Assembly (NCBI GenBank): GCA_022842645.1
Contig: JALHPE010000001.1
Location: 264,178 to 328,177, forward strand
DNA length: 64,000 bases
Direction: 5' to 3'
DNA from: Minisyncoccota bacterium
GTDB lineage: Bacteria; Patescibacteriota; Minisyncoccia; Phycocordibacterales; UBA2100
A model generated the notes under the pieces. That model saw nothing but the letters and a program-made list of their open reading frames with translations. It was not told where the DNA came from and did not search any database. This document shows, piece by piece, positions 3,121 to 47,310 of the stretch. A program made the position numbers and the translations under genes. Positions within the stretch are counted from its first letter, which is position 1, and the number at the start of each line of letters is the position of its first letter.

Positions 3121-3160
3121 AAAATTAGGTTCTAGGTGTTAGGGGCTAGGTTTTAGGGAA
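3121..3160 (-). promoter_or_regulatory. conserved G-poor CCTAAAACC-TAGCCCCTAACACC leader motif (rpsL-rpsG intergenic)
   Basis: mRNA-sense TTCCCTAAAACCTAGCCCCTAACACCTAGAACCTAATTTT-ATG. The same about 30-nt motif recurs upstream of nusA and ppa. Confidence 0.5.
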
Positions 3161-6421: not shown

Positions 6422-6470
6422 TTAGTATTTATACGGCATACAAGATACTCGATACGGTATACTTATTGGC

Positions 6471-12244: not shown

Positions 12245-13921
12245 CTACCGCGGGGTGAGGATATCCTGCAAACGAAGCGCAAGCGCCCCCTGCCCGCGAA
12301 ACACATCCCGTTCAATGGTTGCAAGTATGTCTGCAGAGAGACCCGGCGAAGGGAGGAGTGAAAAATCGGTTGGTGTCTTGAAAAACTGAAATGCGCGGCG
12401 CGAAACTCCCGACTGTGTGCATACAAGAGTCACTTCAGTATGGTTCATGTCCTTACCAAACTGTCTCGCAAAGGTGATGCGGGTTTCGCGCACTCGAAAC
12501 ACCGGCTTCGGATTCCCTATGCCAAATGGCGCAAGACGCTCGAGCTCGCGCAGAAAATCTGGCGACACTTCTCTCAGAAGAATGTCAATATAATCGCTTT
12601 CGTTTGGCGCATTCGTGCGGGCCTCAGATGCACACGACGTGGCTGCTTCGGCGAGCATTTCAGGAAGCGTATGTATGCTTTCTCGAGAAACGGAAAAACC
12701 GCCGGACGCATGGTGGCCCCCAAACTCAATCAGATGCTCTTTGGCATTCGTAAATACTTCAACCACCGAGTGTGCGCCATCCGAACGACACGAACCTTTC
12801 AAGCGGCCGAGAGCATCCTCTCCCCACACGCACACCATCCCACCGCGCTCTTCCATAACAGCGTTTGCAACGAGACCGCACAGACTCGGTTTCCACGTCG
12901 TATCGCCAAGTACGGTTACTAATTCCCCGCCCTGGTAACGCGCACGAGCGCGTGCCTTTGCCTCGCGCGTCATCGCCGCAACGGTGCCGCGACGCTTACG
13001 ATTGAGTGACTCCAGCTCTCGCGCAAGTTTCTCTGCCTCTTCGTCGCTCTCTGTGGTGAGAAGACGAAATGCGAGCTCGGGCACATCCATACGCGAGGCA
13101 GCATTGATGCGCGGCGCGATGGTAAAACCAATGTCACCCTCCGTCATCTCGGAAAGGCGCACTCGCGCGCTCGTCGCGAGTGCACGAAGCCCAGGTCGTC
13201 GTGATTTGCGGAGCACGGTCAGCCCGAAGTGTACGAGCGCACGATTCTCCCCCACAAGCGGAACAAGATCTGCCACCGTTGCAATCGCAACCAAATCCAA
13301 GAGCCATTTCTCCCACCCCTCCGGCACTGCCGCAAAAGAGGCTTCGCCTCTTGTGCGGCCTTCGATGAGTAGCGCTGATGCCAATTTCCACGCAACTCCG
13401 GCACCGCAGAGATCGCGAAACGGATAATCGCCGCGTTTTGGATTAATCACAATGGCATCAGGGAGCGTTTCTTTGAGTTCGTGGTGGTCCGTCACAATTA
13501 CATCAATTCCGAGACTGCGCGCATGCGCGACACCATCAAACGCCACCGTTCCCACATCAACCGTGATAATAAGAGAAACACCCTTCTCTTTGAGAGAATC
13601 GATTGCTTCCGCGTGAAAACCGTATCCCTCCCTGTCGCGGTGCGGAATGTAGACCTCAGCATTCTCGTAGCCAATCTTTTTAAACGTCTCAAATAACACA
13701 GCGGAGCCAGGAATGCCATCGCAGTCAAAATCGCCATACACAGCAATCTTCTCGTTCGCGTGCATGGCTGCAAACACCCGCGCAACCGCCACGTCCATAT
13801 CGGTAAGCAAAAAAGGATCGTGCGTATCCCGCGCAAAATCCGGCTTCAAAAAACGTTCCTGTTCTGCTGGATCCGTAATACCACGTTTATGAAGAAGCAT
13901 CTCAACCAGATCCGAAGTCAT
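12245..13921 (-). CDS. recJ: single-stranded-DNA-specific exonuclease RecJ
   Basis: DHH (VYGDFDCDGIPG, DHH) and DHHA1 domains, full length. Confidence 0.9.
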   Translation of the reverse strand: MTSDLVEMLLHKRGITDPAEQERFLKPDFARDTHDPFLLTDMDVAVARVFAAMHANEKIAVYGDFDCDGIPGSAVLFETFKKIGYENAEVYIPHRDREGYGFHAEAIDSLKEKGVSLIITVDVGTVAFDGVAHARSLGIDVIVTDHHELKETLPDAIVINPKRGDYPFRDLCGAGVAWKLASALLIEGRTRGEASFAAVPEGWEKWLLDLVAIATVADLVPLVGENRALVHFGLTVLRKSRRPGLRALATSARVRLSEMTEGDIGFTIAPRINAASRMDVPELAFRLLTTESDEEAEKLARELESLNRKRRGTVAAMTREAKARARARYQGGELVTVLGDTTWKPSLCGLVANAVMEERGGMVCVWGEDALGRLKGSCRSDGAHSVVEVFTNAKEHLIEFGGHHASGGFSVSRESIHTLPEMLAEAATSCASEARTNAPNESDYIDILLREVSPDFLRELERLAPFGIGNPKPVFRVRETRITFARQFGKDMNHTEVTLVCTQSGVSRRAFQFFKTPTDFSLLPSPGLSADILATIERDVFRGQGALALRLQDILTPR

Positions 13922-19726: not shown

Positions 19727-19731
19727 AGATA

Positions 19732-19759
19732 GCTTGTAGAGTACAGCTTGTAGCTTGTA
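19732..19759 (-). repeat. TACAAGC heptamer repeats (2 tandem plus 1 after a degenerate unit) immediately upstream of the nucleotidyltransferase start
   Basis: mRNA-sense CACTACAAGCTACAAGCTGTACTCTACAAGCTATCT-ATG. Same heptamer family as in the pilin leaders. Confidence 0.6.
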
Positions 19760-19845
19760 GTGGGAAGCCCTGGTTGAATCTAAATTCGTGTACATAAAAA
19801 AGACCCGCCAGAGGTCCGAGAACATGGCGGGTCAGACGTGAAGTC

Positions 19846-24361: not shown

Positions 24362-24498
24362 GGCTCTCAGCGAGACGGCACTCACAAAATGCTTTCCTCG
24401 GGTCGCTGTCTGGGCGTGCTCGCCCAGCGCTCAGTCTCGCGCCCGTCGGCGCTGCGAAGACCCTCGGAAAGCATTCTTGCGAGTGTCACGAGCACTCT

Positions 24499-26001
24499 CT
24501 ACTGTTCACGCCACAACACCAACTTATAATCCGGCGAAGCCGCAGGTGTAAACGGTGGTGGGTCGAACGCAAGCAAGCGATCATAGGTGTCGACGCGCGT
24601 GTTGTAGCCCGAACAGAATGAGCCGCTACAATTCCACTTCGTGCCCACGCGATTGTTTGAAACTACACTTCCGATCGTCGTAAGCGACGACTGTGTCACA
24701 AAGGAGTTATACGCAGACGGGACGCCGTTACTTCCTCCTTGTTGATATAAATTGCGCCCCAGGTAGCCATTCTGTGCAACGAAGACGCCGCGTATGGTCA
24801 TTACATCGGGCGAATTGAGTGGTATCAAAACCGAACGCTCAGCGACAGCCGTGAGCCCCGAAGCGCCCGAAGCAGAAGCGTAGGTAATGTTGTTCGAGAG
24901 AATAATGTCTGGTGAAAAACTTCCGGTGTCTGCCGCAACAATCGTCACTTTTCCGCCCACAACTCCCTCAATCCACACTTTCGCGCGTGCAAAAATTACT
25001 GGGCAATCTGACGGAATCGTGTAGCGTCCGTGATACGTCTGGTTGGAAATAATGTGGTAGTCCGTCACCCACGTACCGATGTTGTCGATACGTTGCGCAA
25101 AGACTCCCGTCGTTCCGGTGACGCGATAAATATCGACGGTGTTGTCGCCGCGAAGCACGATGCGGAATCCGCGCTGGTCGCTGCCGCCGACTGAAGAGAA
25201 CGTGCTTCCCTGTTGAACGCCGTCAACCCGCACCGTTGTTGTGTTGAGCATGATGCCGTCATTCGTCGCATACGTTTGAAGCGCAGGAAAATCGCTCGAG
25301 ATGCCGGCAAAATTAAATGACGCCGCGGGAAACTGCCAGAGCGCAGAGCCACTTCCCGCACCAAAAACGCCCGGGCGATTCTGCGTCGGAGAACATCCAA
25401 ACGATGATGTGCAACTCCATGTGGCAACCGAACTCGAGACAATAGAGTTATTCGTGCCATCCATGCGAATGCCGCCGTTCGAGTGATACGCACCCGTAAT
25501 ATTTCTGTCGGCCCCCGCCCACACGTTCGCATTAATGATATTGGAATATTCAGCGACCGAGGGGCGCATGTAACGTGCCTCCAGTGTACGACGAAAGACG
25601 GTATTCAAATCTGAAACACCTTCAGATACAAGATCCGCTGATTGCACAACACCACATGCAGTATTTAACGTCGCGCTCACTTGAGCGTCTCCCAGTGTTC
25701 CACCCTCGGGATCAACTACTTCATATGACGCGGGGGAAACGAGCCCCGTGCCGTCCACCATAATTTGAGGGTTGTGCGCGAGGAACCATCGATAAAATTC
25801 GAGTCCGCTTTCGGCGACATTCACCGCCTGCTCACGCGCATACAAAGCTCGCCCATAGCGCCCTTGCGTGAGCGTGTAACTTAAAATGGTGCCGAGGAGA
25901 AAGAGGAAGATACCCATGAAGGTGAGAACCAGGATCACGGTCACGCCCCGTTCTGCATGAGAGTTTGTAGTTTGTAGTTTGTAGTTTGTAGTTACATGCA
26001 T
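24499..26001 (-). CDS. large type IV pilin-like / pseudopilin protein (500 aa) with repeat-containing leader peptide
   Basis: Leader MHVTTNYKLQTTNSHAERG, then hydrophobic VTVILVLTFMGIFLFLLG typical of a prepilin N-terminal helix. Leader encoded by CTACAAA x4. Confidence 0.65.
   Translation of the reverse strand: MHVTTNYKLQTTNSHAERGVTVILVLTFMGIFLFLLGTILSYTLTQGRYGRALYAREQAVNVAESGLEFYRWFLAHNPQIMVDGTGLVSPASYEVVDPEGGTLGDAQVSATLNTACGVVQSADLVSEGVSDLNTVFRRTLEARYMRPSVAEYSNIINANVWAGADRNITGAYHSNGGIRMDGTNNSIVSSSVATWSCTSSFGCSPTQNRPGVFGAGSGSALWQFPAASFNFAGISSDFPALQTYATNDGIMLNTTTVRVDGVQQGSTFSSVGGSDQRGFRIVLRGDNTVDIYRVTGTTGVFAQRIDNIGTWVTDYHIISNQTYHGRYTIPSDCPVIFARAKVWIEGVVGGKVTIVAADTGSFSPDIILSNNITYASASGASGLTAVAERSVLIPLNSPDVMTIRGVFVAQNGYLGRNLYQQGGSNGVPSAYNSFVTQSSLTTIGSVVSNNRVGTKWNCSGSFCSGYNTRVDTYDRLLAFDPPPFTPAASPDYKLVLWREQ
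25964..25991 (-). repeat. heptanucleotide tandem repeat CTACAAA x4 (coding sense) inside pilin leader-peptide codons 4-13
   Basis: Plus strand TTTGTAG x4 at 25964-25991. 28 nt is not a multiple of 3, so a one-unit change shifts the frame. Confidence 0.85.
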
Positions 26002-26019
26002 AGGATTAAGAGTTACAAA

Positions 26020-26640
26020 CTACCTGAGGTTCCTAAGAGCAGCTGTGGATCTCAGAGTAAATTGATTCGGCATACGATTCGGATTGATGTTGACTATCAC
26101 CGTTGTTTCGACGAAACGCAGTTCAGTAATATCAGAAAGGTCGGTCATGAGGTTGCCATTCAAATCATAATACTTAAAGACATCTGTCGCTTGCTCGACG
26201 TTGCGTACATATTCTGAAAGCTGCGAGATCGTTTCTGGATTGGTATAAACCGGCGGATCGCCCGATGGATCGATGAGTCCGCGATAAAGTGCCCCACCTT
26301 GGATAAAAAATCGCAGTCGCTCGATGAAAGGATCGTCATCGATATCGGCGTAGAACGACATGGAACTCGTGGCAAGCGAAATGATGGGGTATGCGCCGTC
26401 AGAGGCATATGAGGCTTCACGAATTGTTTTCACCATGCCTTCAATACCACGCTGTGCTGATGTAATCGCTGCTGCCTGCTCAACCGTGTACGAGTTTGTG
26501 CGATAAAAATATTGCACCGACGTGGTGATCGCGAGCATGGCCGAGAGTGTGATCGCCACCCACACACTCGCCTCAATTAATGTCATGCCGCGGTTGGCAC
26601 AGTGTGTAGTGTGTAGTGTGTAGTGTGTAGTTTTATGCAT
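26020..26640 (-). CDS. type IV pilin-like protein with repeat-containing leader peptide
   Basis: Leader MHKTTHYTLHTTHCANRG followed by MTLIEASVWVAITLSAML (prepilin cleavage/methylation-type N-terminus). Alternative GTG start at 26667. Confidence 0.7.
   Translation of the reverse strand: MHKTTHYTLHTTHCANRGMTLIEASVWVAITLSAMLAITTSVQYFYRTNSYTVEQAAAITSAQRGIEGMVKTIREASYASDGAYPIISLATSSMSFYADIDDDPFIERLRFFIQGGALYRGLIDPSGDPPVYTNPETISQLSEYVRNVEQATDVFKYYDLNGNLMTDLSDITELRFVETTVIVNINPNRMPNQFTLRSTAALRNLR
26603..26630 (-). repeat. heptanucleotide tandem repeat CTACACA x4 (coding sense) inside pilin leader-peptide codons
   Basis: Plus strand TGTGTAG x4 at 26603-26630. Paralogous to the 25964-25991 repeat; both genes start ATGCAT..AA then heptamers. 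Confidence 0.85.
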
Positions 26641-26666
26641 AAAAGATTTTGAGCGCGCGAGTTTCA

Positions 26667-26687
26667 CTACAAACTACAGTCTACAGA
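26667..26687 (+). repeat. three CTACAxx heptamers in opposite orientation in the pseudopilin-pilin intergenic region (inverted relative to the leader repeats)
   Basis: Plus strand CTACAAA-CTACAGT-CTACAGA at 26667-26687. Forms an imperfect inverted repeat with 26603-26630 flanking the ATG at 26638-26640. Confidence 0.6.
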
Positions 26688-28438
26688 CTGTTGAGTATGA
26701 TTGATAACCTCGATGTTCCCGACACATTCACTTCAGTCGAATTAAATGTTTGATAGCCGCTTGCCGATGCTTCAATAGTGTATGCGTTTCCTCCACCAAC
26801 ACTTCCCGCACTGAGACTGCTCCAAAAAGCGTTGCCGCAGGTGTCGCTCGTACGCGTCACATCAAAGCCGCCGCGCGTAAGGCGCACCGATGCGTTCGGT
26901 ATTACTACCCCCGCACTTGTCTTCACATCAACAAGAAGAGAATTCGTCGTCTGCGGAGAAAGAATGATTCGCGTTGTCTGCGCCGAGTTCGGCGTGAGTG
27001 TTTCCGGCTGCGGTGCACATGCTGAAGAAATATCATATCCACTGGTGTCGGGCACGATCACCGTGTACGCGTCCCACTCAAGATTCTGAATGAGGAGAGA
27101 TCCGGATGCGCCACTCGAATGAGTCGAATCATACTTATAGATGAGCGCCCCGCCAGCGGTGGTGCCGATTGTTTTTGCACCGCGCAGTGTAAACGAAACA
27201 TTCGGAAGCGGATGCGGGCCAGAATCATACGAGAGTCTCCAAGCGTCCACTGACGGCGTCGTCGATGCATTCCCTGTTGTGAGACGCCCGCGCACGACGA
27301 GTCCGGGATAGGTTGACGTTGAAACACCACTCACATTAATCGGTGACATGGTGAACCCGCCACTGTTTCCCGGGAGCTGCGAATCAGAAACGAGCGTTGT
27401 GCCAGAGCTGTCATACAGTTGTATATAGAGAGCGGTGCCACTCGGCGTATTTGCATCCCACGAAAGTGTTTTCCACGCGACAAGCGTCGAGGTTGAAACG
27501 ACGTTTGAAAAGAATGTACCTTCAAAGGGGTATTCGCCCGCCGTCTCGGTGAGCGCCACAATGCCTCCTGCAATCGTGACGTTTGATGTCGATGCAGTTC
27601 CTGCACCACCTGAAAATGTTTCCGTTGTCGTTGCGGTTGTGACCGGCGTGTATGTTTCAATGCGCTTTTCTGAAACGCGATCAATCGCAAAGGTTCCCGC
27701 AGTCGTGGTATCGAGCGCGACGGCAAGATGCGCAGGGATAGGATTCGTATTCGTTGCGTTTGCGGCATAGGTACGCGCAGTGGAGTAACCAGTTTTCGTA
27801 ACAGTAATCTGATAGCCGGCTCCTGGAGGCACACCTAAAATAGTTGCCTTGCCGTTTTCGTCAGTGAAACGCGTGAGATCAATCGTGGGAACGAGCGTGG
27901 TATTCACGACTTCCACCTCTGCGTTTGAAACAGGAAGAAGTGCGGCGTCCACCACTTCAATTGCAAGAACACCGCCCGGCACCGAGGCTTCAATTCCCGG
28001 AGGAGAAACGCGTGTGAGGAGTTCAATAGTGTGCACACCATCGCGCCCATTCCACGAAACTTGCGACTTCACCGCTTTGTAATCCGTTTCAATGCCATTT
28101 TCATCTGCACCACCAAGTCCATCCGCCGGATCATCTTCGTAGGAAATAAAAGTTCGGCGCGTGTAGGGCACATCATTGAGTTCGATACTTTCAACTTGTG
28201 CGAGCGCACCCGCAGGAATGCCACCAGCAGTCCCGACCGCGTTATAAGAAAGTGAACGAATGAATTCGAGTCGCTCGTTTGCAAGTGCAATCGCTCCCGC
28301 CCGCGCCTTGTTATTCCCCACCGCCATCACAGTCAAACGAAATGCGCCGGCAATACCGACAAACACCACAAGCATGAGCGCAGTGCCCACCACCGCATCA
28401 AGTAGCGTCGAACCTCGTTCCCCGCGAGGAAACCACAT
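26681..28438 (-). CDS. large pseudopilin-like protein (about 586 aa)
   Basis: Short leader MWFPRGERG then STLLDAVVGTALMLVVFVGIAG hydrophobic helix. Start placed at Met19, which leaves the 28455-28482 terminator hairpin outside the gene. TACAAT 8 nt upstream of this ATG. Confidence 0.65.
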   Translation of the reverse strand: MWFPRGERGSTLLDAVVGTALMLVVFVGIAGAFRLTVMAVGNNKARAGAIALANERLEFIRSLSYNAVGTAGGIPAGALAQVESIELNDVPYTRRTFISYEDDPADGLGGADENGIETDYKAVKSQVSWNGRDGVHTIELLTRVSPPGIEASVPGGVLAIEVVDAALLPVSNAEVEVVNTTLVPTIDLTRFTDENGKATILGVPPGAGYQITVTKTGYSTARTYAANATNTNPIPAHLAVALDTTTAGTFAIDRVSEKRIETYTPVTTATTTETFSGGAGTASTSNVTIAGGIVALTETAGEYPFEGTFFSNVVSTSTLVAWKTLSWDANTPSGTALYIQLYDSSGTTLVSDSQLPGNSGGFTMSPINVSGVSTSTYPGLVVRGRLTTGNASTTPSVDAWRLSYDSGPHPLPNVSFTLRGAKTIGTTAGGALIYKYDSTHSSGASGSLLIQNLEWDAYTVIVPDTSGYDISSACAPQPETLTPNSAQTTRIILSPQTTNSLLVDVKTSAGVVIPNASVRLTRGGFDVTRTSDTCGNAFWSSLSAGSVGGGNAYTIEASASGYQTFNSTEVNVSGTSRLSIILNSL

Positions 28439-28500: not shown

Positions 28501-28866
28501 TTACATCTGCACATCCCGCGCTTCAGTGAGCAGTTTGATGATGTCGCCTTTGGAAACCCAGGAGCGGTCATTGTAGTCGCCCGCATTTTCACATTGGCCT
28601 CGTGTCTTCTTTCGCACTAACGCATCTAGCTCAAGGTCACACGATTCCACTACATCAAAAGGCGCGCGGATGCTCCCGCCACCGCCATAGACAGCGCCCA
28701 GGGCGCAACAACACACAACATGAGAACGATTGTTGTACAGATCATCCCTGTCTAACAGCCATCCTGTTGCATCTCGTCCGTAACTTTCTTTCAAAAGCTT
28801 ACGCTGTTGAAGATACTGAATAGCAGCATCAAAGATGCGCCATTTCGTCGAACGTTTTTTTGTCAT
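28501..28866 (-). CDS. hypothetical protein (121 aa)
   Basis: ORF with CCCALGAVYGGGGS segment. No domain recognised. Confidence 0.45.
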   Translation of the reverse strand: MTKKRSTKWRIFDAAIQYLQQRKLLKESYGRDATGWLLDRDDLYNNRSHVVCCCALGAVYGGGGSIRAPFDVVESCDLELDALVRKKTRGQCENAGDYNDRSWVSKGDIIKLLTEARDVQM

Positions 28867-29078: not shown

Positions 29079-30296
29079 CTAAATATTCTCCGAAAGCTGA
29101 TAGATCGGCGAGATCATCGCAACTGCGAAGAAGCCCACAGCGCCGCCAATTGCGATCATGAGAAACGGCTCAATCACCGTCGACATATCTTTCGTCTTTC
29201 GGTCCACCTCATCTTCGTAAAAGATAGCGAGTTTTTTCATCATGTCGGTAAGCTGCCCTGTTTCTTCTCCCACCGCCATCATCTCCCCCACAAACGCCGG
29301 ATAGAGGTGTTCGTTCCGCACAAAGGCAGCAGAGAGTGGCTCGCCCTTCCCCACATTCTCACGCGCCTCCACGACCACTGCCTTGAAATAACTGTTCTGC
29401 ACCACATCCGTCACAATCTCAAGCGAAGTAATCACATCCACGCCGGAAGAAAGGAGTGACGAGAGTGTGCGCGAAGCACGCGCCGCGTTCACTTCTTTCA
29501 CAATAGGACTAATAAGCGGGATGTGGAGGAATATAAAATCACGCACCCGAGACCCCGTCGCCGTTTTCACAAACGCAAAGATGCCACCAAAGAAAAGTAC
29601 AACCGCCGAAAATGCGACCACCGTGTAAGAGACTAGAAAATTAGAAACCGCGATGATTGCTTTTGTGGAAGCGGGAAGCTCCGCATCCATTTCCGCAAAG
29701 GTCTGTGCCAGGGTTGGCACCACGTTGATCATCATGAAAGCACCAATACCAATGATCGCAAACACTATAATGGCGGGATACAGGAGCGCGCCGCGAATCT
29801 TCTTCTTCAAAACATACATGCGCTCCATTTGTTCTGAAACAACCACAAGTGACTGCGAGAGCTGCCCGCCTTCCTCACCCGCACGAGTCATCGCGATAAA
29901 CAGTTTTGAAAAGATGCGCGGAAACTTCGCGAGTGCGGAGTGAAGCGTCTCGCCGCGGCGCACTGCGCCTGAAAGTTCGGTCACCACTTCAGCAAGGCGC
30001 GCATTCTTTGTCTGTCGCTCAATCACCGCAAGCGCACGCGCAAGCGAGAGCCCCGCAGAAAGCATCGCACCAAGGTTTCGCGCAAAGAGCACTTTGTCAT
30101 ACTCCGGGACGCTTGAAATCTTTGCATTCCAGTGCGCGAGTGAAAACCAAGACTTCGCCCCATCTTCCTCAACCGAAAGAATGCGACCACCCTCGTGGCG
30201 AACAATTTCATAAAGCGCAAAACGATCTTTCGCATCTGCGGTTCCCTTGTACACTTCCCCTCCCGCTTTCTCAGCAGTGTAAGTAAATTTCGCCAC
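29079..30296 (-). CDS. pilC: type IV pilus assembly / type II secretion platform protein PilC/GspF
   Basis: Two GspF repeats, about 406 aa from a GTG start (VAKFTYTAEKAGGEVYKG). The 132-aa upstream extension in the track is not PilC-like and overlaps a terminator and the 108-aa gene. TATAAT hexamer 6 nt upstream of the GTG. Confidence 0.85.
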   Translation of the reverse strand: MAKFTYTAEKAGGEVYKGTADAKDRFALYEIVRHEGGRILSVEEDGAKSWFSLAHWNAKISSVPEYDKVLFARNLGAMLSAGLSLARALAVIERQTKNARLAEVVTELSGAVRRGETLHSALAKFPRIFSKLFIAMTRAGEEGGQLSQSLVVVSEQMERMYVLKKKIRGALLYPAIIVFAIIGIGAFMMINVVPTLAQTFAEMDAELPASTKAIIAVSNFLVSYTVVAFSAVVLFFGGIFAFVKTATGSRVRDFIFLHIPLISPIVKEVNAARASRTLSSLLSSGVDVITSLEIVTDVVQNSYFKAVVVEARENVGKGEPLSAAFVRNEHLYPAFVGEMMAVGEETGQLTDMMKKLAIFYEDEVDRKTKDMSTVIEPFLMIAIGGAVGFFAVAMISPIYQLSENI

Positions 30297-30737: not shown

Positions 30738-32471
30738 CTATTCGGTAATCACCCTCAAAACCTCCTCTATTGTAGTAACCCCTTGCGATGCCTTAAAAAT
30801 TCCATCCTCAAGCATCGTAAGCATCCCCTCCTTTCGTGCCTGGTCGTGAATATCATCCGCCGTTGCATTCTTCATAACGAGCTCTTTTGTGGTCGCGCTC
30901 ACGGGAAGCACTTCGTAAATCCCCATACGCCCCGCAAAACCGTCACCCCCGCCATCAGTTTTCGGCTTCCAAAACGGCACGTTTTTCCACGTGGCATCCG
31001 GGGGAATAATTTTTTCCTCTTTCAGCGACTTAAGTACTATTCCCGCTTCAACTACGTGCTCAAGTTGTTTCTGTTCGTCGCGCGAGAGTTCATACTTCTC
31101 TTTCCCACCCGCAAGCTTACGCACGAGGCGTTGCCCGATCACCACCCGCAGCGTTGAAACCAAGAGAAACGGCTCAACACCCATGTCAAGAAGACGCGGA
31201 ATCGCACCCGCTGCGGAGTTTGTGTGAAGCGTTGAGAGCACTAAGTGCCCCGTAAGAGCCGCATTAATCGCAAGTGAGGCCGTTTCTTTATCACGAATCT
31301 CCCCCACCATGATGATGTCGGGATCCTGACGCACGAGTGAGCGAAGTCCATTTGCAAACGTGAATCCAATCTCTGGGCGCACCTGCGTCTGATTCACCCG
31401 CTTCATCTGATACTCAATCGGATCCTCAACGGTCGAAATATTTACGTCGGGCGTGTTCACCAGATCAAGGAGCGTGTAGAGCGTCGTTGATTTACCGGCG
31501 CCCGTCGGCCCCGTGGTGAGAATGAGTCCTGTCGTTTTCTTCATCGCCTCATGCATGTCTTCCAATGCTTTACCATGAAAACCAAGTGCCTCAAGCGAAA
31601 ATCCTGAGATGTTATCGCGGAGGAGTCGCATGACAATCTTCTCTCCATAGTAGGTAGGCAAAATGGAAACACGAAACGAAATTTTCTCGCCCCCTGCTTC
31701 AACACCAAAACGACCATCCTGGGGAAGACGCTTTTCATCAAGGCGCATGTTCGCCAACACTTTCACACGCGCGGTAATCGCAGGAGCCGCATGCTTAGGG
31801 AGCTCCATCGCGTCATGAAGGAGCCCATCGATGCGATACCGAATAAGAAGCGTCTCTTCTAGAGGCTCGATATGAATGTCTGAGGCGCCCTGCGCATTTG
31901 CGTGACGCAGAAGCGTGTCCACAATACGCACTGCGGGCACCCCTTCAGCCATCTTGCGCTCGTCATCCCCCGCGCCAGCACCCTCAGCGGCCAAGACATC
32001 CGTCTCGCGCTTGATGACATCTCCTAAATTATCTTTAAGCCCGCGCTGGTACTGCTTCAGCGCCGCTTTAATAGACGGAGCATCGGTGAGGCGCGGCAAG
32101 ACCTTCAGGCGCGTCTTCTTCTTAATGAAATCAATCGCTGCCAAGTCATCGGTATCGAGCATCGCCACTTCAAGCTCCTCGCCTTTGTGATTGTAGGCAA
32201 CGATGTTATTTCTGCGCGCGACAGGCTCAGGAATAAGAGAAAGCGTGTCAAAAGGAATCTTCTGTGTGGCAAGGGAAATAAAAGGAATGCCGAGAATGTA
32301 GGCATAGGTGCGACGAAGTTCGTCTTCGCCAATCAGTGCACGCCCAATTAAGATGTCGCCCACCGGCTGATTGCGCTCCTTAGCCTCCTGATCCGCTGCG
32401 TCAAAATCTTTCTGCGAAACCAAATTCGCATCAGAAAGAAATGTTTTTAGTTGCTGGTCAGAAATGTACAT
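30738..32471 (-). CDS. pilB: type IV pilus assembly ATPase PilB / GspE
   Basis: Walker A GPTGAGKST, Asp box, His box, GspE N-terminal domain. Start placed at MYISDQQLK. Confidence 0.9.
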   Translation of the reverse strand: MYISDQQLKTFLSDANLVSQKDFDAADQEAKERNQPVGDILIGRALIGEDELRRTYAYILGIPFISLATQKIPFDTLSLIPEPVARRNNIVAYNHKGEELEVAMLDTDDLAAIDFIKKKTRLKVLPRLTDAPSIKAALKQYQRGLKDNLGDVIKRETDVLAAEGAGAGDDERKMAEGVPAVRIVDTLLRHANAQGASDIHIEPLEETLLIRYRIDGLLHDAMELPKHAAPAITARVKVLANMRLDEKRLPQDGRFGVEAGGEKISFRVSILPTYYGEKIVMRLLRDNISGFSLEALGFHGKALEDMHEAMKKTTGLILTTGPTGAGKSTTLYTLLDLVNTPDVNISTVEDPIEYQMKRVNQTQVRPEIGFTFANGLRSLVRQDPDIIMVGEIRDKETASLAINAALTGHLVLSTLHTNSAAGAIPRLLDMGVEPFLLVSTLRVVIGQRLVRKLAGGKEKYELSRDEQKQLEHVVEAGIVLKSLKEEKIIPPDATWKNVPFWKPKTDGGGDGFAGRMGIYEVLPVSATTKELVMKNATADDIHDQARKEGMLTMLEDGIFKASQGVTTIEEVLRVITE

Positions 32472-32574
32472 ACGGTTTCCCTGCCGTGGATGCGTGCAGT
32501 ATAGCAAGAAAGCCCAGGACACTGCCCGGGCTTTCTGTACATTATTACCGTATCGGTCGTGCGCATCCTATCGG

Positions 32575-32823: not shown

Positions 32824-32861
32824 TACTAACACCTAAAACTTAGCCCCTAACACCTAATCCT
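32824..32861 (+). promoter_or_regulatory. conserved G-poor leader motif ACTAACACCTAAAACTTAGCCCCTAACACCTAATCCT before nusA ATG
   Basis: Shares CCTAAAAC and TAGCCCCTAACACCTA blocks with the rpsG and ppa upstream regions. No SD. Confidence 0.5.
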
Positions 32862-34484: not shown

Positions 34485-34519
34485 CATTACCTAACACCTA
34501 GCCCCTAAAACCTCATTGT
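34485..34519 (+). promoter_or_regulatory. conserved G-poor leader motif CATTACCTAACACCTAGCCCCTAAAACCTCATTGT before ppa ATG
   Basis: Third copy of the CCTAACACC / TAGCCCCTAAAACC motif family. Confidence 0.5.
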
Positions 34520-35933: not shown

Positions 35934-35979
35934 CGCCATCTATTTTCTAATATCTACCATCTAATATCTTCCCCTCCTT

Positions 35980-36366
35980 ATGGACCCCCTCACTCAAAAT
36001 CAAAACCCCATCACAACCGGTAGTCAGATGCCGCCGCAGATGCCAAGTTCAGAACCTGAGCGTTCTCCCATGGGCCCAGTTGCAGGCGCTGTGATTGTTA
36101 TCGTACTCCTCGTCGCAGGTGGCCTCTACTTCTATGGCGCAAAACTCAATCGAGAAACCATGATGAAAAACAACGCACCGTACATACCATCGGACACAAT
36201 GATGGAAGAAACATCGATAATGCCTACTGAAGCATCGATGGATACCATGGTCGGCCTTCCTTCACAAAGCAGTTCCGATGACGTCTCTTCCATTGAAGCA
36301 GATCTGAATGCAATGGATATGGGTGCAATCGAATCCTCAAACCAGGCTGAACTGAATAATCTCTAA
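35980..36366 (+). CDS. hypothetical membrane protein (128 aa)
   Basis: Pro/Ser-rich N-terminus, one TM helix (GAVIVIVLLVAGGLYFYG). Confidence 0.5.
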   Translation: MDPLTQNQNPITTGSQMPPQMPSSEPERSPMGPVAGAVIVIVLLVAGGLYFYGAKLNRETMMKNNAPYIPSDTMMEETSIMPTEASMDTMVGLPSQSSSDDVSSIEADLNAMDMGAIESSNQAELNNL

Positions 36367-38304: not shown

Positions 38305-38904
38305 ATGAAAAACACACCCATAACCGCACAAATGTTAGTCCCGATGGTCGTTGAGAAAACCACCATGGGCGAGCGCGCCTATGACATCTACTCCCGCCTT
38401 CTGAAAGAGCGCATTGTCTTTCTTGGCGGCCCGATTGACGACCACGTGGCGAATCTCGTGATCGCTCAGCTCCTTTTCTTAGCAAGCGAAGATCCAAAGA
38501 AAGATATTTCTTTCTATATCAATTCCCCTGGTGGACACGTCTCGTCCGGCCTCGCGATCGTAGACACCATGAATCATATCCAGCCGGATGTCTCGACTGT
38601 GTGCGTTGGTATGGCGGCCTCCATGGGTGCGGTACTTCTCTCAGCGGGTAAAAAGGGCAAACGCTTCGCGCTTCCGAATGCCGAAGTGATGATTCACCAA
38701 CCTTCAGGCGGTGCAGAAGGCCAGGCGTCCGATATCGCGATAACCGCGAAGCACATACTTGCAACACGTGAGCGCTTGAACAAAATTCTTGCGAAAAATA
38801 CCGGACAGTCAGTTAAAAAGATCGAAACTGACGTCGATCGCGACTTCTTTATGACCGCCGACGAAGCAAAAACCTACGGCGTCATTGACAAAGTGCTCGA
38901 ATAG
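38305..38904 (+). CDS. clpP: ATP-dependent Clp protease proteolytic subunit
   Basis: [33 protein letters not shown] and catalytic Ser/His/Asp context ([11 protein letters not shown]). Start is either 38305 or 38332; the track start at 38179 overlaps the antisense gene. Confidence 0.9.
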
Positions 38905-39158
38905 TTGGACAGGTTACAGGTTTTAGGGTTTAGTTTTTAGAGGCTTTTGTTTTATGGCTTATATAAAGGTTATTCCCAGAACCTACCGCCCATTCCCTAC
39001 AACCTAGTGAGGTGCTATAGTGCATGTACACCTTACCATTTATGTCACTTTACACCGCGCACCTCTCTATCAAAGCGCACTCTAACCGTGTCTTTCTATC
39101 AATGAACTCTGTCACACGAATGCAGGCGTACTAGAGGCGCGTGGTTAAATCCACGCAT

Positions 39159-46392: not shown

Positions 46393-47310
46393 TTACACTT
46401 TTCGCTTCCCATGGAAATTACGGTGGATCTCGCGGAGGTGTTTGTCGGTGACGTGGGTATAGACCTGGGTTGTTGCAATGTTTGCGTGCCCCAAAAGCGC
46501 CTGTACCGAGCGGAGATCGGCGCCATTTTCTAGAAGATCAGTTGCAAATGAGTGACGAATCGTGTGCGGCGTCACTTTGCGAGTAATACCTGCCTTCACT
46601 GCATATTGCTTCACAATGTATTGCACCGAGCGTGAGGTAAGACGCTTTTTGTCCGCCCCTTTTCCACTGGTGCCGCCGCGACCATATCCAACAAAGAGGG
46701 CCTCACCCATGTCTCCTCGTTTTTTGAGGTAGTCAGCCACCGCACTCTTCGCAGAGGGGGACAGAAACACCACACGCACCTTTTCCCCCTTCCCGCGCAC
46801 CGAAAACTCATCGCGTGAAAGGTCAATATCGGCGTTCAGGGAACAGAGCTCCGAGACGCGCAATCCTGTCGAAAAAAGAAGTTCGAGAATTGCTCTGTCA
46901 CGGAGGGCTTGTAGGGATTCTCCCGAAGGACCCTTCATGAGGCGGCCCAGTTCAGCGCTCGTAATAAGATCGAGGTCGCGCCCACCCACCTTCGCAAGCT
47001 CTATGCGCTCGGGGGAGAGGGATTCAATACCTTGCTTCCGCATGTATTTAAGAAAGGCGCGTAAGGCAATGAGGTAATAGTTCTGGGTCTTTTTCTTCAT
47101 AGAACCCGCCACCCCTGGCTCACGGTTGAGCCAAATGCGGAATTCACGGACGACGGGCTCCGTGAGCTGTGCAGGAGTTTTAACCTTGGTTCTCTCAAGA
47201 AATCGAGAAAGATACCGGTCATAATTTTCAACCGTTTTCACCGAACGCCCTTTTTCGATCTCACAGTATTCGAGAAACTGTGTTTTTAGGCTTTTGAGAT
47301 CTTGTGCCAT
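46393..47310 (-). CDS. xerC: tyrosine recombinase XerC/XerD family
   Basis: N-terminal SAM-like domain. Catalytic R...HxxR...Y pattern (ELLFSTGLRVSE, HTIRHSFAT, QVYTHV). Confidence 0.85.
   Translation of the reverse strand: MAQDLKSLKTQFLEYCEIEKGRSVKTVENYDRYLSRFLERTKVKTPAQLTEPVVREFRIWLNREPGVAGSMKKKTQNYYLIALRAFLKYMRKQGIESLSPERIELAKVGGRDLDLITSAELGRLMKGPSGESLQALRDRAILELLFSTGLRVSELCSLNADIDLSRDEFSVRGKGEKVRVVFLSPSAKSAVADYLKKRGDMGEALFVGYGRGGTSGKGADKKRLTSRSVQYIVKQYAVKAGITRKVTPHTIRHSFATDLLENGADLRSVQALLGHANIATTQVYTHVTDKHLREIHRNFHGKRKV

Follow-up and report, generated by a model that had tools for sequence, protein, structure and literature searches.

Why does a pilin gene open its reading frame between two inverted blocks of tandem heptamers? 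The question is raised by a stretch of 64,000 nucleotides (nt) from a Minisyncoccota bacterium (hereafter the window), in which a minus-strand gene for a prepilin or pseudopilin of 206 amino acids (aa), at 26020-26640, starts downstream of three TAG-type heptamers and runs at once through four copies of CTACACA. Bacteria of the Candidate Phyla Radiation (CPR, or Patescibacteria) are ultra-small and uncultivated, with reduced ribosomes and regulatory repertoires, and to our knowledge almost nothing is known about how their gene expression is controlled. We compared the window with 64 related loci (the L-numbers below stand for these and for further related contigs), which were retrieved through PilC from metagenome-assembled genomes of Patescibacteria (Paceibacteria, Kaiserbacteria-like) and which make up 1.15 Mb together with the window. 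The same architecture, consisting of an inverted heptamer arm, a spacer with the ATG and a sense heptamer arm, recurred with differing heptamers at orthologous and paralogous pilin genes of at least seven related genomes, so that the repeats are maintained rather than accidental, as had been proposed in an earlier reading of the window made from its letters (the original prediction). The explanation that we tentatively prefer is that this block is a cassette acting at the level of messenger RNA (mRNA), which may gate or couple translation of the pilin and may itself be translated as a disposable leader.

Heptamer arms around the pilin start codon

Just 3′ of the start codon (ATG, 26640-26638, minus strand) stand the four CTACACA units (26630-26603), for which Tandem Repeats Finder reported a tract at 26601-26631 with period 7, 4.4 copies and 100% matches. 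From this ATG the reading order is ATGCATAAAA, CTACACA four times, TGT GCC AAC CGC GGC, and then ATG ACA TTA ATT GAG; the leader is accordingly MHKTTHYTLHTTHCANRG, followed by MTLIE, and the 3′ arm (26601-26631) is translated TTHYTLHTTH. Upstream, also on the minus strand, lies TCTGTAG ACTGTAG TTTGTAG (26687-26667), the reverse complements of CTACAGA, CTACAGT and CTACAAA (Tandem Repeats Finder: 26666-26689, 3.4 copies, 82%), and with the flanks that extend the inverted repeat this 5′ arm spans 26665-26691 and presents TAG in all three frames. Both blocks together form an inverted repeat of 27 nt that is 85% complementary, with 39 nt separating the arms (26691-26665 versus 26625-26599). The A-rich spacer, which is also the predicted hairpin loop (26632-26664), holds the ATG and adjoins an in-frame alternative start, GTG 26667-26665. 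Within the 64-kb window CTACANNCTACA occurs nine times, where 0.03 occurrences are expected and none of 100 shuffles reached nine.

The original prediction had described the CTACACA leader codons, the three inverted heptamers around the ATG and the change from leader to MTLIE after the RG junction, and our analysis agrees with it on each. It had also placed the upstream block between genes, which is right only in part, as the upstream gene, which encodes a pilin-like protein of 585 aa, has its last codons and its TAG stop codon (26683-26681) within the first heptamer. The same arrangement is found in most of the relatives' cassettes, where the TAG that ends the upstream gene is the first or the second one in the 5′ arm. 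A start at the GTG at 26667, which had been named as an alternative, is not favoured: an ATG about 10 nt 5′ of the array is common to the window and L002, where the GTG is out of frame, and we therefore take ATG 26640 as the start. Start calls on identical DNA nevertheless differ, four Logan contigs having the gene begin at ATG 26640 (206 aa) and three others at ATG 26586 (188 aa, a leaderless protein); because the 188-aa product is recorded on DNA identical to the window, it reflects a difference between gene callers. The public start annotation of such pilins is thus unstable, and cassette-encoded leaders inflate their apparent protein diversity.

The downstream gene, for a pilin-like protein of 500 aa, carries the paralogous repeat that had been predicted, with CTACAAA four times in its leader. 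Its cassette (25964-26023, minus strand) consists of a single inverted copy, GTAGTTTGTA (26023-26014), which includes the stop codon TAG of the 206-aa gene (26022-26020), the ATG at 25999-26001, and the CTACAAA units at 25991-25964 (Tandem Repeats Finder: 25962-25993, 4.6 copies, 100%). The leaders of the 206-aa and 500-aa proteins share a direct repeat of 41 nt that is 85% identical, the copies lying 639 nt apart.

When folded as RNA, the window cassette (26695-26595) was predicted to form a stable stem-loop of -28.1 kcal/mol (z = -4.76), and in a context of 141 nt the predicted energy was -34.5 kcal/mol (z = -2.83). Long hairpins were predicted for all 11 two-armed cassettes tested, which came from eight genomes and have unrelated heptamer sequences, with energies of -19.8 to -42.7 kcal/mol and z scores of -3.1 to -6.0 relative to dinucleotide shuffles. 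These hairpins are built of helices of 4-7 base pairs (bp) with small internal loops every 7 nt, and the AUG lies in an A-rich loop of 30-45 nt; the paired part of the fold begins about +10 from the start codon. A stem-loop that occludes the start codon had been proposed in the original prediction, and the stem-loop is borne out by these folds, but the occlusion is not, since the position of the AUG in the A-rich loop leaves it outside the stem.

These features can be combined in a model of translational gating or coupling, in which hairpin formation in vivo and its effect on translation are both conjectural. The TAG-heptamer arm would end the upstream frame and close all three frames, the A-rich spacer would supply the start codon, and the complementary, G-poor CTA-heptamer arm would be translated within a lengthened prepilin leader, which cleavage would later remove. 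In the mRNA the arms would pair imperfectly over about 25 bp and leave the AUG in the loop. Because the 5′ arm includes the upstream stop codon, a ribosome terminating the upstream gene would melt this stem and so free the start region and the first pilin codons, and the region from about +10 would remain paired until the upstream gene is translated. The cassette would in this way couple the pilin to translation of the upstream gene, in place of an ancestral overlapping stop and start codon, ATGA. In support of this model, no sigma-70-like promoter was found within the operon, so far as our scan of the gene strand from 28950 to 24400 shows.

The cassette resembles known mRNA hairpins of translational coupling in that its stem spans a cistron junction, the upstream stop codon is in one arm and there is no Shine-Dalgarno sequence. 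It differs from them in that its arms are tandem 7-nt units with mismatches every 7 nt, its AUG sits outside the stem, in a large loop, its 3′ arm is translated in the signal peptide, and the whole cassette is exchangeable and is present or absent among close relatives.

Several of our results weigh against gating by the hairpin. The order of the heptamers is not optimised for pairing, as the 16 cassettes examined never beat random permutations (fraction at or above the observed value, 0.33-1.0). In a cassette of L011 (13809-13904), pairing was 26/32 as observed and 31/32 with the order reversed. The sister cassette of the 500-aa gene (26023-25964), with its one 10-nt inverted heptamer copy, had no significant fold (z = +0.26). 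The arrays at housekeeping genes that are described below are single and lack a partner arm, so that a hairpin cannot be the function of the whole class, and array-bearing initiation regions (50 array-adjacent starts, folded from -45 to +20) were on average no less structured than shuffled controls (mean z = -0.05). Lastly, the patchy distribution of arrays in the clade is as compatible with a dispensable or selfish element as with a regulatory one.

The permutation test also led us to reject the idea that the arms had been selected as a precise inverted repeat. The L011 cassette at 13809-13904, which is two-armed and of the CTAG-nnn type, separates the last pilin gene from a tpiA promoter that is leaderless. 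In it the variable triplets find their complements in the 5′ arm without a change of order instead of as a mirror image, so that a simple inverted duplication does not explain it.

Smaller features of the block were also recorded. A perfect palindrome of 14 bp, TTTTATGCATAAAA (26644-26631), has the start codon of the 206-aa gene at its centre, and ATGCAT also opens the next gene (26001-25996). Together, the first two heptamers give a short palindrome, ACAGTC TGTA GACTGT (26691-26676, minus strand), with a T-rich stretch after it; it overlaps the stop codon of the 585-aa gene and looked weakly terminator-like in our scan. The cassette as a whole does not have the form of an intrinsic terminator, as CUGUGCCAACCGCGGCAUG, the sequence after the 3′ arm, contains no U tract, and the weak 6-bp mini-hairpin at 26691-26676 was the only position flagged. 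In the search for a target-site duplication around the cassette, only a 4-nt CAAC match was seen, which is not meaningful. Covariance models of Rfam 15 gave no match at E-values up to 1 in 25800-26900, and at the gathering threshold the whole window yielded four transfer RNAs and nothing else.

Insertion and exchange of cassettes in pilin leaders

We recovered orthologues of the 206-aa pilin from 43 loci, and Gly(-1) and a Glu or Asp at +5 were retained in these 43 orthologues. The closest relative, L001 (92% aa identity), has the short leader MNRG, and its upstream stop codon overlaps the start codon as cTATGA (cTATGAatcgtggcATG), the sequence of the junction being cTATGAatcgtggc. MNRG is found in L019 and L039 as well, and most other orthologues have MRG or similarly short leaders. 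In the window, Asn-Arg-Gly (positions -3 to -1) is encoded by AAC CGC GGC and followed by the ATG of mature residue 1 (MTLIE; 26584-26595, minus strand), and these three codons differ from those of L001 (AAT CGT GGC) only by synonymous changes. Approximately 90 nt of cassette stands where the ATG of the relatives would be, and the repeat block is a recent insertion relative to the short leader of close relatives.

As the original prediction had noted, the leader of 18 aa, which precedes a mature protein of 188 aa, is unusually long: leaders in the three pilin families are typically 3-10 aa, and those of array-bearing orthologues are 16-37 aa. In every array-bearing leader (more than 18) the frame is open from the spacer ATG through the array to Gly(-1), from which we conclude that the arrays are translated as part of the prepilin leader. 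The 206-aa protein shows features of a class III signal peptide, in that ANRG is followed by MTLIEASVWVAITLSAMLAI and the N-terminal helix is hydrophobic with Glu at +5, and cleavage would be expected to occur at Gly(-1). Since the leader is removed by such cleavage, it would be one of the few coding segments that tolerate arbitrary sequence.

The search of related genomes that had been suggested for heptamer-bearing pilin leaders was productive and revealed several families of cassettes. Long leaders are present in about a third of the 120 best homologues from a database search, and their peptide types mirror the heptamer families: TTxYxLxTT derives from ACTACNN, SGYWLVAS from CTAGTGG/CTATTGG, NTLYVIPYTRY from ATAC types, and DKGQGTRDEG...SIPPSLHP from CAAGGGA/TCCCTCCA. 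Pilins that are 86-92% identical to that of the window have different cassettes or none, with CTACACA in the window, TAGCCAC in L070, ATAC in P0003, and no cassette in L001 and other homologues of 192 aa. The cassette of L070 (86% identical) reads TAGTAAT TAGCCAC TAGCGAC TAGCCAC TAG, then at-ATG, then CTAGTGG CTACTCC CTAGTGG CTAGTGG.

Families also cross between genes. The TAGCCAC/CTAGTGG family is found at the orthologue of the 206-aa gene in L070, at those of both the 206-aa and 500-aa genes in L011, and at that of the 585-aa gene in L013, and the pilins that bear it in L011 and L013 are only about 45% identical to those of the window. Likewise, the gene that carries the CAAGGGA/TCCCTCCA cassette is the 500-aa one in L070 and the 206-aa one in L023. 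Within a family the arms are nearly invariant and the spacers diverge. Because families are common to non-orthologous loci, we conclude that cassettes have been exchanged between pilin genes and between genomes, most likely by recombination via conserved sequence on either side, which comprises the codons for the C terminus of the upstream pilin and those of the RG-xTLIE region. The leader is a hypervariable spot in the pilus operon, where close strains carry different cassettes or none, and this bears on strain-level variation in pilus expression. The pilus of these epibionts is thought to serve attachment and DNA uptake.

Period-7 arrays at other gene starts and competing explanations

Arrays of period 7 are not confined to pilins. 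Within the window, a 3-mer recurred at least four times at a fixed period of 7 at seven loci, compared with zero to two loci for the other periods from 4 to 12. A scan for column conservation over the 1.15 Mb recovered 75 arrays at period 7, and for periods 5, 6, 8, 9, 10 and 11 it recovered 0, 7, 4, 37, 3 and 8, respectively, those of period 9 reflecting coding repeats. The centres of 54 of the 75 arrays are within 130 nt of a predicted start. Arrays measure 28-44 nt, with 4-6 units and never more. Across 41 curated start-proximal arrays the sense strand contains 34% A, 28% C, 23% T and 15% G; C is commoner than G in 29 of them and rarer in 6 (p = 1e-4), A outnumbers T in 35 and is outnumbered by it in 6, and CTA is the periodic triplet in 22. 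The distribution is patchy: the array-rich set consists of the window, L002, L003, L007, L008, L011, L013, L017, L020, L021, L023 and L047, and arrays are almost absent from the close relative L001 and absent from L005 and L019.

In the window, five CCTAnnn units (3126-3157, minus strand) fill the spacer between rpsL and rpsG and end 3 nt 5′ of ATG 3120, the start of the gene for ribosomal protein S7. The units ACTAACA CCTAAAA CTTAGCC CCTAACA CCTAATC (32824-32860, plus strand) abut the nusA start, ATG 32862, and four CCTAnnn units (34490-34513, plus strand) precede ATG 34520 of the inorganic pyrophosphatase gene ppa. An array of the CTACAAG type (19730-19760, minus strand) ends right at the ATG of a gene for a nucleoside triphosphate (NTP) transferase, five ATACnnn units (6431-6462, plus strand) lie 5′ of ATG 6471 of the Fe/Mn superoxide dismutase gene sodA, and five TCTAnnn units free of G (35939-35969, plus strand) lie 5′ of ATG 35980. 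An array in the opposite orientation (TAG type; 38911-38940, plus strand) directly follows the clpP stop codon (stop at 38904); this TAGG-type array is about 200 nt before the gene for RNase Y. Exact CCCTAAA or TTTAGGG units occur in the arrays of CCTA type (3126-3157, 32824-32860, 34490-34513, 38911-38940, and L013 4740-4770), and their likeness to the plant-type telomere repeat is probably a coincidence.

The arrays at orthologous genes point to selection on the period. An array precedes nusA in seven genomes (window, L001, L002, L003, L008, L011 and L012), in which only CTA is constant at period 7, and for ppa the array core differs between the window (CCTAnnn), L011 (CCTGnnA) and L015 (GCTnnAA). 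Since the arrays at nusA, ppa, the NTP-transferase gene and pilB keep their CTA or CT columns as the others drift, across genomes whose PilC proteins are 60-90% identical, we infer purifying selection on the period. The pilB genes of L002, L008, L011, L013 and L021 have a conserved extended -10 box, TGnTATAAT, 15-40 nt 5′ of the array, so that the array is part of the 5′ untranslated region; in array-free relatives pilB is leaderless or nearly so. Genes led by arrays have no Shine-Dalgarno sequence, and the other genes of the window are leaderless (TAnnnT, 6-7 bases, ATG) or have AAGGAG. Two simple functions were considered and set aside. Arrays as tandem -10 boxes were dropped because most heptamers lack the final T and the pilB arrays lie downstream of a clear TGnTATAAT, and the folds of the 50 array-adjacent starts led us to reject an unstructured landing pad for ribosomes, although the bias of the arrays in strand and against G is genuine.

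On a broader and rather doubtful view, the heptad signal might be a third kind of initiation or regulatory region beside leaderless and Shine-Dalgarno starts. It would consist of 4-6 copies of a motif, mostly CUA, that recurs every 7 nt on the sense strand adjoining the start, and an oligomeric factor or the reduced ribosome would read it on the mRNA. Pilins would then have a two-armed, self-pairing, horizontally exchangeable version that supplies stop codon, start codon and leader. Possibilities for what reads the 7-nt period include a triplet-reading oligomer, a property of the ribosome, or a mutational or selfish process filtered by selection, and if it is true that a dedicated factor does so, this would be a new regulatory mechanism. 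Independent of the reader, a sequence class seen from genomes alone marks the starts of core genes (rpsG, nusA, ppa, sodA and pilB) as well as of pilus subunits.

The alternative to the gating cassette that survives best is that the cassettes are selfish or neutral, which we consider possible and yet rather unlikely. They would be spread by recombination between conserved pilin flanks, possibly after DNA uptake, and would persist only in tolerant sites such as untranslated leaders, intergenic spacers and cleaved signal peptides, with the hairpin and the keeping of frame being consequences of origin and filtering rather than functions. The variation of cassette presence and family among pilins 86-92% identical, the occurrence of one family at non-orthologous pilin genes of distant genomes, the patchy clade distribution and the unoptimised heptamer order are all what this explanation predicts. 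However, it does not account for the persistence of arrays with their CTA or CT columns at orthologous nusA, ppa, NTP-transferase and pilB sites, nor for their strong orientation and composition bias relative to the gene and their narrowly bounded length of 4-6 units; compact genomes should also quickly delete neutral inserts, and neither a target-site duplication nor an association with a transposase was seen. Repetitive extragenic palindromic (REP) sequences and bacterial interspersed mosaic elements (BIMEs), Correia elements or neisserial miniature insertion sequences (NEMIS), enterobacterial repetitive intergenic consensus (ERIC) sequences and miniature inverted-repeat transposable elements (MITEs) are likewise inverted repeats of about 100 nt within operons that form mRNA hairpins, vary between strains and occur as families across loci. 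In the cassettes, by contrast, the arms are tandem heptamer arrays in place of unique terminal inverted repeats, many unrelated families share one period, and the start codon is carried in frame, embedded in coding sequence.

It is unlikely, in our estimate, that the heptamers are instead reiterated sites of an oligomeric protein that reads a short motif every 7 nt, on DNA as the omega protein does or on RNA as HutP and TRAP do. Binding would repress or activate the downstream gene, and at the pilin cassette a bound UAG arm could not pair with the CUA arm. The arrays lie directly at start codons, so that a protein bound to them would stand in the way of ribosomes, and many have only 3-4 conserved columns per heptamer (CCTA plus three, or CTA plus four, variable bases), as a triplet-reading oligomer predicts and as the periodic CTA of the 22 curated arrays also suggests. 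Operators of the omega (ribbon-helix-helix) repressor of inc18 plasmids such as pSM19035 are contiguous 7-bp heptads near gene starts, in direct and inverted orientation, and contiguous direct and inverted 7-bp units at a gene start are what we found here. The omega heptads have the single consensus WATCACW, whereas at least four unrelated cores occur in the window (CTACA, CCTA, ATAC and TCTA) and others in relatives (AAGCT, CTGAAAC, CAAGGGA, GACT and more), and the same gene has different cores in different genomes, so that one sequence-specific reader cannot account for all. In addition, a spacing of 7 bp does not keep phase with the DNA helix, the arrays are strand-biased and, at least for pilB and the pilins, lie within the transcript, and we identified no candidate for a cognate ribbon-helix-helix or other binding protein.

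On the RNA side, HutP and TRAP similarly read a short triplet at fixed spacing. HutP recognises three XAG motifs per surface, its two XAG-rich sites flank a linker, and its binding remodels an adjacent hairpin (PMC2425495). The 5′ arm, UAG-N4-UAG-N4-UAG (UAG ACUG UAG UUUG UAG), has the three NAG triplets with 4-nt spacing and thereby the spacing of the 21-mer HutP site. However, a second NAG-rich site 12-17 nt downstream is lacking, as the 3′ arm, (CUACACA)4, is CUA-rich and contains no NAG, and the linker measures 39 nt. In many arrays the core is a different one, the context here is translation initiation and not a terminator, and no HutP or TRAP homologue was identified.

A further proposal, already made in the original prediction, was that the CTACACA tract is a template for slippage. 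As a contingency locus it would shift frame by slipped-strand mispairing and so switch the pilin on or off, and it is placed as such a locus would be: the tract is perfect (4.4 copies, 100% matches), its unit does not make up whole codons, and it separates ATG 26640 from the mature N-terminus of a surface-filament subunit. Perfect tracts of 3-4 units are moreover commoner in pilin than in housekeeping leaders. The opa genes of Neisseria, where CTCTT repeats in the signal-peptide region cause phase variation by slippage, are like this locus in having a tandem repeat with a unit that is not a multiple of three in the leader codons of a surface protein. The opa unit number is roughly 7-28, whereas here there are four units with an inverted partner arm, and seven Logan contigs from at least three runs (SRR28154519, SRR28154524, SRR28154529 and others) were identical through the four-unit tract at the assembly level. 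Arrays at orthologous genes always comprise 4-6 units and are never long, and imperfect ones are frequent; the same class occurs in untranslated housekeeping leaders, where reading frame is irrelevant. A variable-gap pattern scan of metagenome contigs of the Joint Genome Institute (JGI) gave 0 matches for variable-copy alleles, and in look-ups of the exact products of frame-shifted alleles, those of 500 aa and 481 aa were not on record. Three Logan contigs do end exactly at the last CTACAAA unit (25964), where a longer allele or a longer paralogous tract would branch the assembly graph, but this is weak evidence because the same assemblies break reproducibly at 24437, which is free of repeats. 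We regard slippage switching as possible, if poorly supported, and as quite improbable. The contig ends at 25964 and 24437 in several runs make co-existing strain variants likely.

An invertible DNA switch, which had also been suggested, was rejected, as a spacer of only about 39 bp makes inversion mechanistically implausible and no inverted variant was seen.

Our search of the literature for heptamer or heptanucleotide repeats in Patescibacteria, Parcubacteria and Kaiserbacteria found no relevant paper in the collection searched. Each ingredient is known: hairpins that couple translation, repeats within signal-peptide codons, operators made of heptads, and small interspersed elements that are palindromic. 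What appears to be new is their combination, that is, a clade-wide period-7 class at gene starts together with a two-armed, in-frame, exchangeable form in cleavable pilin leaders.

Operon context and other features of the window

The pilin genes lie downstream of a PilB-like open reading frame (ORF; 30738-32522) and a PilC-like ORF (29079-30296) on the same strand, an order that is kept in the 64 loci, and a T2SSF Pfam match is recorded on the neighbouring gene of an identical Logan contig. Between PilC and the pilin genes is a small DUF6197 gene (28501-28866, minus strand). This slot is variable, as in the related contig L071 it holds an acetyltransferase-like gene (282-692).

The upstream pilin-like gene (26681-28438, minus strand) encodes 585 aa with the leader MWFPRGERG followed by STLLD, and looks leaderless. 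Its start is most likely ATG 28438 and not the GTG of a listed 603-aa ORF; 5′ of it, on the minus strand, are a terminator hairpin (28482-28456), TACAAT (28450-28445) and six bases (agttat), directly followed by the ATG. The 500-aa pilin-like gene (24499-26001, minus strand), 3′ of the 206-aa gene, has the leader MHVTTNYKLQTTNSHAERG, which ends in HAERG and is followed by VTVILV. In all three proteins the leader ends in Arg-Gly and a hydrophobic N-terminus comes next. A TAnnnT box at leaderless distance from ATG 26640 or ATG 26001 was absent on inspection of the sequence.

Pfam and NCBIfam searches with the three pilin-like proteins gave no match to a pilin domain, including PF07963 and TIGR02532, and a sequence search of the PDB found nothing meaningful and no relative. 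One homologue that is 71% identical bears PF07963, and homologues are named in their sources as pseudopilin PulG, PilV or type II secretion system protein. No gene for a peptidase of family A24 was among the window ORFs scanned.

The gene of 128 aa that follows the TCTAnnn array (35980-36366, plus strand) is preceded by CCCCTCCTT; its product has no Pfam match and a very weak NCBIfam similarity to the conjugative pilin TrbC (E = 0.004, far below the cut-off). Many genes of the window look leaderless, with a -10 box (TATAAT, TACAAT or TATACT) 6-7 nt 5′ of the start codon, and such sites include 30308-30294, 28450-28436 and 46393-47310 (minus strand), and 55713 and 63057 (plus strand), among others. 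At pilC, which looks leaderless, TATAAT is followed by gactgt and the GTG at 30296. Only a minority of the window genes have a clear AAGGAG Shine-Dalgarno sequence. Lastly, the leader of the 500-aa protein contains an out-of-frame mini-ORF, ATG CAG AAC GGG GCG TGA (25959-25942, minus strand), the end of which overlaps, as GTGA, the GTG that encodes the first mature residue of this protein.

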